Shown in pieces: positions 42,961 to 44,263 of a DNA stretch of 63,147 bases; position 1 is the first letter of the stretch; each line of letters begins with the position of its first letter. The position numbers and the translations under genes are program-made. The stretch spans positions 1 through 63,147 of the forward strand of contig JAHJDH010000012.1 of NCBI GenBank assembly GCA_018812625.1, in the 5' to 3' direction. The stretch is from Candidatus Micrarchaeota archaeon. GTDB lineage: Archaea > Micrarchaeota > Micrarchaeia > Anstonellales > Bilamarchaeaceae. A model generated the notes under the pieces. That model was not told the DNA's origin, made no database searches, and saw only the letters and a program-made list of their open reading frames with translations.

Positions 42961-43896
42961 ATGAGGATTTTCTTATTCCTGTTTCTTCTGTCTGCTTTTT
43001 CATTTTCACTAAATGTAACTCATTTTCTCAATATCGAGACCGAAATAATCTGTCCGGATAATGATCTTGTTATGACTGCAATTGCATCAAATGGATCTCC
43101 TGCTCCAGCAGTAGAGCTTCGGGTTGTTTTACATTCTCCATATCAGGGTCTTCGTGCTGTCAAAACAACGGATAAGGATGGCATTGCGGTTGCAGAATTA
43201 ACCAAGACCGGATTATATAGAATCTACATAAACACAGAATTTTACAATCACGATGACTTTGTTGAATTTAATTATTCAGAACTTTGTCCAGCTCCTCCAC
43301 CAAAACAATTCAATATTTCTGTTATTCCTCTTTGCAATCAAAGTCAGTTGATGGTTCAGGTTGCTGAAGATGATGTTCCTTTGCAGGATGTTTTTGTCAG
43401 GACTCTCAATTGGTCATCTACAACAAACAACTATGGGCAGGTTATTCTTCCTCTTGATGAAGGGTATGTTTACATAGTTGCAAACAAGTCTGGATTTGTC
43501 CGCCAGGAATTCTGGATTGATATCAATTGCACACCTGCACCACCTCCTCCTTCGCCAGAATGTTTGCAAAATCCAGATTGCGCGCCCAATCAGATTTGCG
43601 AAAATGAAACATGCGTAAATATTTCAGGAACATGTGGATATGCAGAAAATCATAGCTGGATAGACTACGCGTGCTGCGAGGATAATGACTGCGGCTACAA
43701 GATGATCTGCGAAAACAACAGCTGTATAATCAAGCCTGCTCCCAAGCCAAATATCACAGAAAATATTTCTTCGAACGATTCAAACAAATCAACTTTGGCT
43801 GAAGATGAGGGCCCTTCGCAAATCCAACTTGGTATTATTGCTGCTATTCTCATTTTGCTAATTATTACTGGATATTTTGTTCTAAAGAAAAAATAG
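42961..43896 (+). CDS. Secreted surface glycoprotein: signal peptide, two small beta-sandwich domains, Cys-rich module, C-terminal TM
   Basis: MRIFLFLFLLSAFSFS signal, several N-x-S/T sequons, poly-Pro linker, ~10-Cys module, TM + KKK. Confidence 0.85.
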   Translation: MRIFLFLFLLSAFSFSLNVTHFLNIETEIICPDNDLVMTAIASNGSPAPAVELRVVLHSPYQGLRAVKTTDKDGIAVAELTKTGLYRIYINTEFYNHDDFVEFNYSELCPAPPPKQFNISVIPLCNQSQLMVQVAEDDVPLQDVFVRTLNWSSTTNNYGQVILPLDEGYVYIVANKSGFVRQEFWIDINCTPAPPPPSPECLQNPDCAPNQICENETCVNISGTCGYAENHSWIDYACCEDNDCGYKMICENNSCIIKPAPKPNITENISSNDSNKSTLAEDEGPSQIQLGIIAAILILLIITGYFVLKKK

Positions 43897-44152
43897 GTGG
43901 GCTTCCCGGTTAGCTTTTAGCAAACATACAAGGAGCCAACCCAATCCACTCAATCCTGGATCTTACAAGCATGGAATAAAATGTTTAGGGCTGCTTCTTT
44001 CGATCTGACCCGGTTCACACAGTATCCCACCATATAAGGCAGGACGTCAACGCTTCAAGAGGCTGGGCATGCATATTTACCAAAACGCCCCGGGCATTCG
44101 AGTCACCTAAGGGGATTTGTGAAGCCGGGACCCCTAGCCCCGCTCTAGCCCA
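43896..44152 (-). ncRNA. ffs: Signal recognition particle (7S) RNA
   Basis: Helix 8 GGGUCAG-AUC-GAAA-GA-AGCAGCCC (SRP54 motif), helix 1 UGGGCU/AGCCCA, Alu loop-loop UAGGGG/CCCCUUA, long helix 5, TTTAAAA box ~25 nt upstream. Confidence 0.92.
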
Positions 44153-44263
44153 TTAATATAATGCAATTGGCGCTTTTAAATTATGCTGCTAGGAGCGAAG
44201 AGTGGTAAACTACTAATGCCAAAGACCCAATATTGTTTCGCTCTGCTTCTTTTAGTGTTTACT

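Follow-up and report, generated by a model that had tools for sequence, protein, structure and literature searches.

The 63,147-nucleotide (nt) contig JAHJDH010000012.1 of a Candidatus Micrarchaeota archaeon (assembly GCA_018812625.1), called the window here at its full length, carries a gene for signal recognition particle (SRP) RNA in which helix 6, the binding site of the protein SRP19, is missing, and SRP19 itself could not be detected in the genome to which the window belongs. The sampled Micrarchaeota, Nanoarchaeota and Altiarchaeota have in common that both helix 6 and SRP19 are missing, and one Nanohaloarchaeota RNA also lacks helix 6. We regard it as very probable that the window encodes a functional Micrarchaeota SRP RNA, that this RNA most likely forms a particle with SRP54 only, and that this is an old trait of the DPANN-type archaea.

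At Rfam gathering thresholds a single SRP RNA was found in the window (43897-44153, minus strand), and there was no second match in the 1.27-Mb genome, which is 85% complete. The bacterial large model (Bacteria_large_SRP, RF01854) was the only Rfam model whose cut-off was passed, at 66.7 bits against a cut-off of 60, and it was matched at full length (model positions 1-256 of 256). The archaeal model (Archaea_SRP, RF01857) could be aligned over its whole length too, at 43895-44155, once the filters were made permissive, but at 61.6 bits (E 2.2e-13) this match lies below the archaeal gathering cut-off of 96.5 bits, and 38 hidden model positions, accounting for most of helix 6, were replaced in it by 3 nt. 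Both models can therefore be aligned end to end to this RNA, the archaeal one with its helix-6 block deleted. An earlier sequence-only reading of the window, made without database searches, had proposed an SRP RNA of ~257 nt without helix 6 at 43896-44152; the Rfam alignments and the covariation described below bear this out, and the RNA does lie there, with the correction that it is on the minus strand, which that reading had left unstated.

Fold of the RNA and the helix-6 site

An alignment of 20 RNAs, comprising the window RNA and 19 others of the same family and covering nine genera, was folded with RNAalifold, giving a consensus of 81 pairs of which 54 showed compensatory changes on both sides. 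In this consensus structure 95.1% of cells were paired, compared to 38-47% when the partners were slid by 1-3 columns, and whichever measure was used the observed value was attained in none of 500 shuffles. Covariation was strong along helix 5, where 40 of 52 pairs were changed on both sides, and every helix-5 pairing that had been drawn from the sequence alone was recovered when the consensus was mapped to the window (CCCGG/CCGGG, GUUUUGGUAAAUAUGCAUG/CUUGUAUGUUUGCUAAAAGC, CCAGCC/GGUUGG, GUCCUG/CAGGAU and CUUAUAUGGUGGGAUA/UAUUCCAUGCUUGUAAG). The Alu domain had likewise been read as intact, and this holds, as helices 2, 3 and 4 each contain compensatory changes and their loops carry complementary GGGG and CCCC runs; with its Alu domain and paired ends the window RNA has these features of the Archaea_SRP family.

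Helix 5 ends in helix 8, which is made up of a GUGU/ACAU base, an asymmetric loop (GAACC/UAA), GGGU/GCCC pairs, a symmetric loop (CAGA/AGCA) and UC/GA pairs beneath the tetraloop, so that the hallmark of the SRP RNA clan (Rfam CL00003) is present: helix 5 leading into a helix 8 that has both conserved loops and a GNRA tetraloop. Hardly any variation was seen across the alignments in the loops of helix 8, in its GNRA tetraloop or in the UGA/GAG internal loop of helix 5, and all of the RNA elements used by SRP54 and FtsY in other systems are retained.

Just 2 free nt on each side separate helix 5 from helix 8, and the helix-6 hairpin with a GNAR tetraloop, which stands 5' of helix 8 in the Archaea_SRP family, is absent. 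Because the pairs closing the would-be helix-6 branch site covary, there is no three-way junction in the window RNA. The linkers of 11 and 9 nt (CUGUGUGAACC and UAAACAUUU) that the sequence-only reading had placed between the two helices are real, but they are part of helix 8 and not spacers, as pairing (GUGU/ACAU, showing compensatory changes) takes up four of their bases and what remains forms the normal asymmetric loop of helix 8. An alternative fold containing a helix-6 hairpin, which would have overturned that reading, was looked for in the minimum free energy and alignment folds and was found in neither, the junction bases being paired with covariation.

The window RNA shares with canonical archaeal SRP (7S) RNA (RF01857, for example that of Methanocaldococcus jannaschii, PDB 1LNG and 2V3C; PMC2905702) its paired ends, Alu helices 2-4 with loop-loop complementarity, the UGA/GAG internal loop of helix 5, the helix-8 loops with a GNRA tetraloop and the partners SRP54 and FtsY, but it differs in having no helix 6, no three-way junction and no SRP19, and in its length of ~257 rather than 311-313 nt. 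Its helices are those of the bacterial large SRP RNA (RF01854, Bacillus subtilis scRNA type), which also combines an Alu domain, helix 5 and helix 8 with no helix 6. The Alu-domain partner of the RNA in Bacillus is HBsu. Unlike the members of that family, however, the window RNA has an archaeal host, belonging to the Micrarchaeota, and is homologous column by column to archaeal SRP RNAs, which are its closest sequence relatives, so that bacterial descent does not apply. Escherichia coli 4.5S RNA resembles it in having an S domain that forms one continuous hairpin to helix 8, and is bound by Ffh (SRP54) without a helper, but it has no Alu domain whereas that of the window RNA is complete. Thermoproteus also has a non-canonical gene, producing a permuted and circularised SRP RNA (relevant to the helix-8 inserts in DPANN archaea described below), but its peculiarity is one of gene permutation without domain loss: it keeps SRP19 and a helix 6 with its GNAR loop (PMC4731332), which contradicts a report, repeated in the sequence-only reading, that the Thermoproteales lack helix 6.

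Protein partners and the proposed particle

The genome encodes both proteins required for a two-component SRP, namely an SRP54 that includes an M domain and FtsY as the receptor. The SRP54 gene on contig C23 is complete (440 amino acids (aa), with N, G and M domains); its product is 98% identical to the SRP54 of a Micrarchaeota metagenome-assembled genome (MAG), and the SRP54 search returned only close Micrarchaeota. FtsY is encoded within the window, 10 kb from the SRP RNA gene.

In contrast to genomes with the canonical archaeal SRP, no SRP19 was found to be encoded here. The Pfam family PF01922 had no match in the genome even at E <= 10, and a profile hidden Markov model built from a diverse set of SRP19 domains, seven in all and taken from non-DPANN archaea, searched with hmmsearch --max against all stop-to-stop open reading frames (ORFs) of at least 40 aa in the genome, gave a best E-value of 0.47. 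The ORF behind this value (97 aa, on contig C23) was rejected as an SRP19 candidate, as it matched over the C-terminal third only, had no YFD...GRR motif and belonged to no Pfam family. Weak Pfam SRP19 matches in relatives (L082-L086, E 0.006-0.23) contained internal stops or lay inside a 1159-aa ORF and were dismissed as noise. That SRP19 had probably gone from this lineage, as had been supposed along with the loss of helix 6, thus agrees with both searches of the genome and with a search of its close relatives, in which 0 of 41 genomes had a match over the cut-off.

We suggest that the RNA would be transcribed from a TATA-type promoter ~26 nt upstream, would end at an oligo-U tract, and would fold into a normal Alu domain, a long helix 5 and helix 8 as a single terminal hairpin with the SRP54-binding loops. 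SRP54 would then bind helix 8 directly, with no SRP19 to clamp helix 6 to helix 8, and the resulting SRP54-RNA particle would dock on FtsY; a two-component composition with direct binding of SRP54 is what the architecture of the RNA and the available partners point to. Such a two-part SRP is a small step for an archaeon, because archaeal SRP54 binds SRP RNA without SRP19 in vitro and because deletion of SRP19 is tolerated in Haloferax volcanii, where it is dispensable (PMC2905702, PMC6098224). For cultivated nanohaloarchaea, the SRP parts listed are Ffh, FtsY and SRP RNA only, without comment (PMC10266531).

The features of the RNA, its flanks and the FtsY gene are collected in the table below. 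The spacing of the putative TATA-like box is in line with that of archaeal promoters, and the oligo-U tract is likely to be an archaeal terminator. An ORF on the plus strand (42961-43896, 311 aa, no Pfam family) converges on the SRP RNA gene, with its last codons and stop overlapping the oligo-U tract, and the hydrophobic stretch followed by KKK at the C-terminus of its product has the look of a membrane anchor. The N-terminal ~190 aa of FtsY, preceding the N and G domains, have an extremely high content of Lys, Glu and Pro, with KKxEKP and EEPVE-like repeats, and form a charged A-domain which is very long for a 1.3-Mb genome.

Table. Positions in the window of the SRP RNA gene, its structural elements and flanking signals, and the FtsY gene
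Feature	Position	Strand	Basis or remark
SRP (7S) RNA gene, ~257 nt (257-261 nt)	43897..44153; Archaea_SRP alignment 43895-44155	-	RF01854 and RF01857
5'/3' end pairing	44152-44148 with 43902-43898	-	consensus mapped to the window
Alu domain: helix 2 GAG/CUC, helix 3 CGGGGCU/GGUCCCG, helix 4 UCAC/GUGA	44100..44145	-	RNAalifold
Helix 5, 5' strand	44023..44094	-	pairs with 43905-43978
Helix 5, 3' strand	43905..43978	-	pairs with 44023-44094
Canonical helix-6 branch point	44021..44022	-	just 2 unpaired nt (CU) here
Helix 8, SRP54 M-domain site	43981..44020	-	fits the helix-8 consensus of both Rfam models; covariation
GAAA tetraloop of helix 8	43998-44001	-	
Putative TATA-like box TAATTTAAAA	44174..44183	-	centre ~26 nt upstream of the predicted 5' end; sequence reading
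Oligo-U tract UUUUUUCUUU, likely terminator	43884..43893	-	directly past the 3' end; sequence reading
FtsY, SRP receptor, 486 aa	32468..33928	-	Pfam SRP54 GTPase domain 230.9 bits, SRP54_N 35.1 bits

Distribution of helix 6 and SRP19 among archaea

Taking a match over the Pfam cut-off as presence, SRP19 was found in 0 of 151 Micrarchaeota genomes, 0 of 251 Nanoarchaeota (in the GTDB sense) and 0 of 54 Altiarchaeota (genomes of up to 2.5 Mb). Controls were Thermoplasmatota of similar assembly quality, of which 110 of 121 were positive, and assorted other non-DPANN archaea put through the same pipeline (7 of 7), and with the controls pooled as 116/127 the difference from the three phyla (0/456) was highly significant (Fisher test, P = 2.5e-110).

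The RNAs gave the same picture. For the ~200 SRP RNAs from the three phyla, the status of helix 6 was established by inspection in ~55 and by length in the rest. No helix 6 was present in any of the 131 SRP RNAs found in Micrarchaeota (258-312 nt, mostly 258-281 nt), and in all those of at least 285 nt, which were inspected, the surplus bases were located outside the helix-6 site. Helix 6 was also missing from 8 of 8 inspected RNAs labelled as Woesearchaeota or Nanoarchaeota, groups for which lengths of 265-271 nt were recorded. In the Altiarchaeota 50 RNAs measured ~267-284 nt, and although helix 6 is deleted in them, their scores on the archaeal model reached 176 bits. A DNA pattern scan for helix 8, which returned mostly bacteria, added one Nanohalobium RNA and one RNA of an uncultured archaeon, both with 0-1 nt at the helix-6 site and no helix 6. 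By comparison, five SRP RNAs from non-DPANN archaea were 311-313 nt long with a helix 6 capped by a GNAR loop, and in a MAFFT alignment a block of ~40 nt with this loop, 5' of helix 8, was present in these five only. One further Altiarchaeota RNA (G477:C113:199-507), known by its length of 309 nt where ~275 nt is usual for the others, could hold either an insert or a helix 6.

According to a 2010 review by Zwieb and Bhuiyan, every archaeal subgroup known at that time had SRP19, and it occurred together with helix 6; the review does not mention Nanoarchaeota and is older than the description of the other DPANN phyla (PMC2905702). Full-text searches of the open literature with SRP19 or SRP RNA and DPANN clade names found no description of a state lacking helix 6 and SRP19.

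The long Micrarchaeota RNAs (~290-312 nt) were considered as candidates for having kept helix 6, and were rejected as their extra bases proved to be a helix-8 insert, a 3' hairpin, or inserts in the Alu domain or helix 5. Two of them, both from Micrarchaeota genomes (L118, G030:C14:4297-4628, minus strand; and L119, G105:C17:2513-2837, minus strand, a member of the window RNA's own family), carry a 45-nt insert in a GGAA tetraloop of helix 8 with canonical bulge-helix-bulge (BHB) geometry: an inner helix (GCUUUG/CAGAGC), a central helix of 4 bp (GCCG/CGGC) and bulges of 3 nt, GA(U/A) on the 5' strand and AAA on the 3' strand. A cut made in silico after the second of the three bases in each bulge yields CAGGCCGGAAGGAGCA, which is exactly the apex found in intron-less members of the same genus, and removing the insert leaves an RNA of 260-267 nt. 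From their sequence these inserts look like tRNA-type introns in SRP RNA genes. No description of BHB-type introns in an SRP RNA gene was found, apart from the hypothesis of Plagens et al. (2015), by which the permuted Thermoproteus gene had simple BHB introns as its precursors (PMC4731332).

A Woesearchaeota RNA of 322 nt (L149, G182:C85, 1501-1822, plus strand) has a BHB-like insert of 49 nt, which interrupts the 5' strand of helix 8 between the UC and the A of the symmetric loop and is made up of an inner helix (CGCGCUAG/CUAGCGCG) and a central helix (CGGG/CUCG), with UCA and AGA as the bulges. The helix 6 drawn for this RNA by the covariance model (CM) is really this insert; once it is removed the RNA is 273 nt, has no helix 6 and is colinear with the intron-less RNA of G184. 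A further insert of ~29 nt lies close to the helix-8 apex in L155 (G188). Elsewhere in the Micrarchaeota an extra hairpin of 10-35 nt lies 3' of helix 8 (L117, L120, L096 and L112 in family f15; L121-L132 and L134-L136 in families f13 and f14), in some cases with a GNRA loop (for example GC-GCAA-GC), producing a three-way junction which mirrors the position of the canonical helix 6. The 312-nt RNA L133 (G052:C1:67960-68291, plus strand), of the same family as the window RNA, has one insert of ~17 nt between Alu helices 3 and 4 and a second, ~34 nt long, within helix 5 on its 5' strand.

History and meaning of the probable two-part particle

The absence of both helix 6 and SRP19 across Micrarchaeota, Nanoarchaeota and Altiarchaeota, with helix 6 missing from the Nanohaloarchaeota RNA too, points to a single event of long ago or to a lack from the start, rather than to the independent loss in this lineage that the sequence-only reading had put forward. 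Either there was one loss at or before the base of the DPANN-type archaea, or these never had the two parts at all. Separate recent loss here, while each of the other groups lost the two parts independently and in parallel, is conceivable because SRP19 is dispensable in archaea, and the remnant at the junction does vary by phylum (0-5 nt in CM alignments), but with SRP19 in none of the 456 genomes and helix 6 kept in none of the ~200 RNAs of the three phyla, it would require many losses without a surviving intermediate, which is unparsimonious and makes it an improbable history. The alternative in which a helix-6-less, two-part SRP is the ancestral state of archaea, one that Bacillus-type bacteria share, and in which both missing parts were gained once on the branch to all non-DPANN archaea and eukaryotes, is a tentative one that we hold to be possible though rather unlikely; it would leave the present-day mechanism the same. 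It is consistent with the architecture being that of bacterial large SRP RNA (RF01854 being the sole model over its cut-off here), with the uniform lack across four DPANN-type phyla without a helix-6 remnant in any inspected RNA, and with the description of DPANN archaea, in a passage of PMC7414124, as potentially deep-branching. If the archaeal root lies between DPANN and the rest, one gain is also more parsimonious than a gain and a loss, and the Altiarchaeota, which with genomes of up to 2.5 Mb are not strongly reduced, are without both parts, so the lack is not simply tied to extreme genome reduction. However, DPANN archaea are well known for losing genes, it is disputed where the archaeal root lies and whether DPANN are monophyletic with Altiarchaeota, and the dispensability of SRP19 in Haloferax means that loss is easy.

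The particle might also have more than two components, if SRP19 has diverged too far to be detected or if an unrelated protein binds the RNA elsewhere. SRP19 is short and fast-evolving and the genome contains many small ORFs without a family assignment, but with helix 6 and its GNAR loop gone a conserved SRP19 would have no target, and neither the best profile match, confined to a C-terminal third without the motif, nor the weak matches in relatives resembles a diverged SRP19; we think this explanation doubtful in the extreme. That the RNA is instead a bacterial one on a mis-binned contig, or a decaying pseudogene, is suggested by its best match at gathering threshold being the bacterial large model, and this we consider next to impossible. 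The 63-kb contig carries archaeal genes (FtsY, and a CDC48 59% identical to its best-matching Micrarchaeota proteins), the RNA aligns column by column and with compensatory changes to 19 RNAs of its own family, and its conserved helix-8 loops are all intact; bacterial contamination is ruled out by the gene content together with the homology of the RNA.

Some points do weigh against a functional, two-part SRP of old standing in the DPANN-type archaea. The genome is only 85% complete, and the absence of SRP19, a short protein, is called by sequence similarity, with a Pfam search whose control misses the SRP19 of Sulfolobus acidocaldarius and in which 11 of 121 Thermoplasmatota were SRP19-negative, giving a sensitivity in MAGs of ~91%. 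A protein partner not homologous to SRP19 may exist, the expression of the RNA and its exact ends are predictions, and the DPANN-type phyla surveyed for SRP19 were Micrarchaeota, Nanoarchaeota and Altiarchaeota.

The finding has a practical side, as the curated Rfam thresholds call this archaeal RNA a "Bacterial large SRP RNA", and the archaeal model RF01857 passed its cut-off in just 27 of 151 Micrarchaeota genomes. RNAs without helix 6 fall below the archaeal cut-off or are labelled bacterial, and annotation pipelines will therefore mis-annotate or miss them. For the biology of the SRP, the 456 genomes without SRP19 in three phyla, with SRP RNAs that lack helix 6, correct the textbook view that SRP19 occurs in every archaeal group, and they offer a natural experiment on whether SRP19 is required and give biochemists a minimal archaeal SRP to work with. 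Whether a lineage has helix 6 and SRP19 also bears on the monophyly of DPANN, the placement of Altiarchaeota and the root of the archaea, and if the original absence of both parts were true, it would be a rare structural character in favour of a root between DPANN and the rest, with Altiarchaeota grouped with DPANN.

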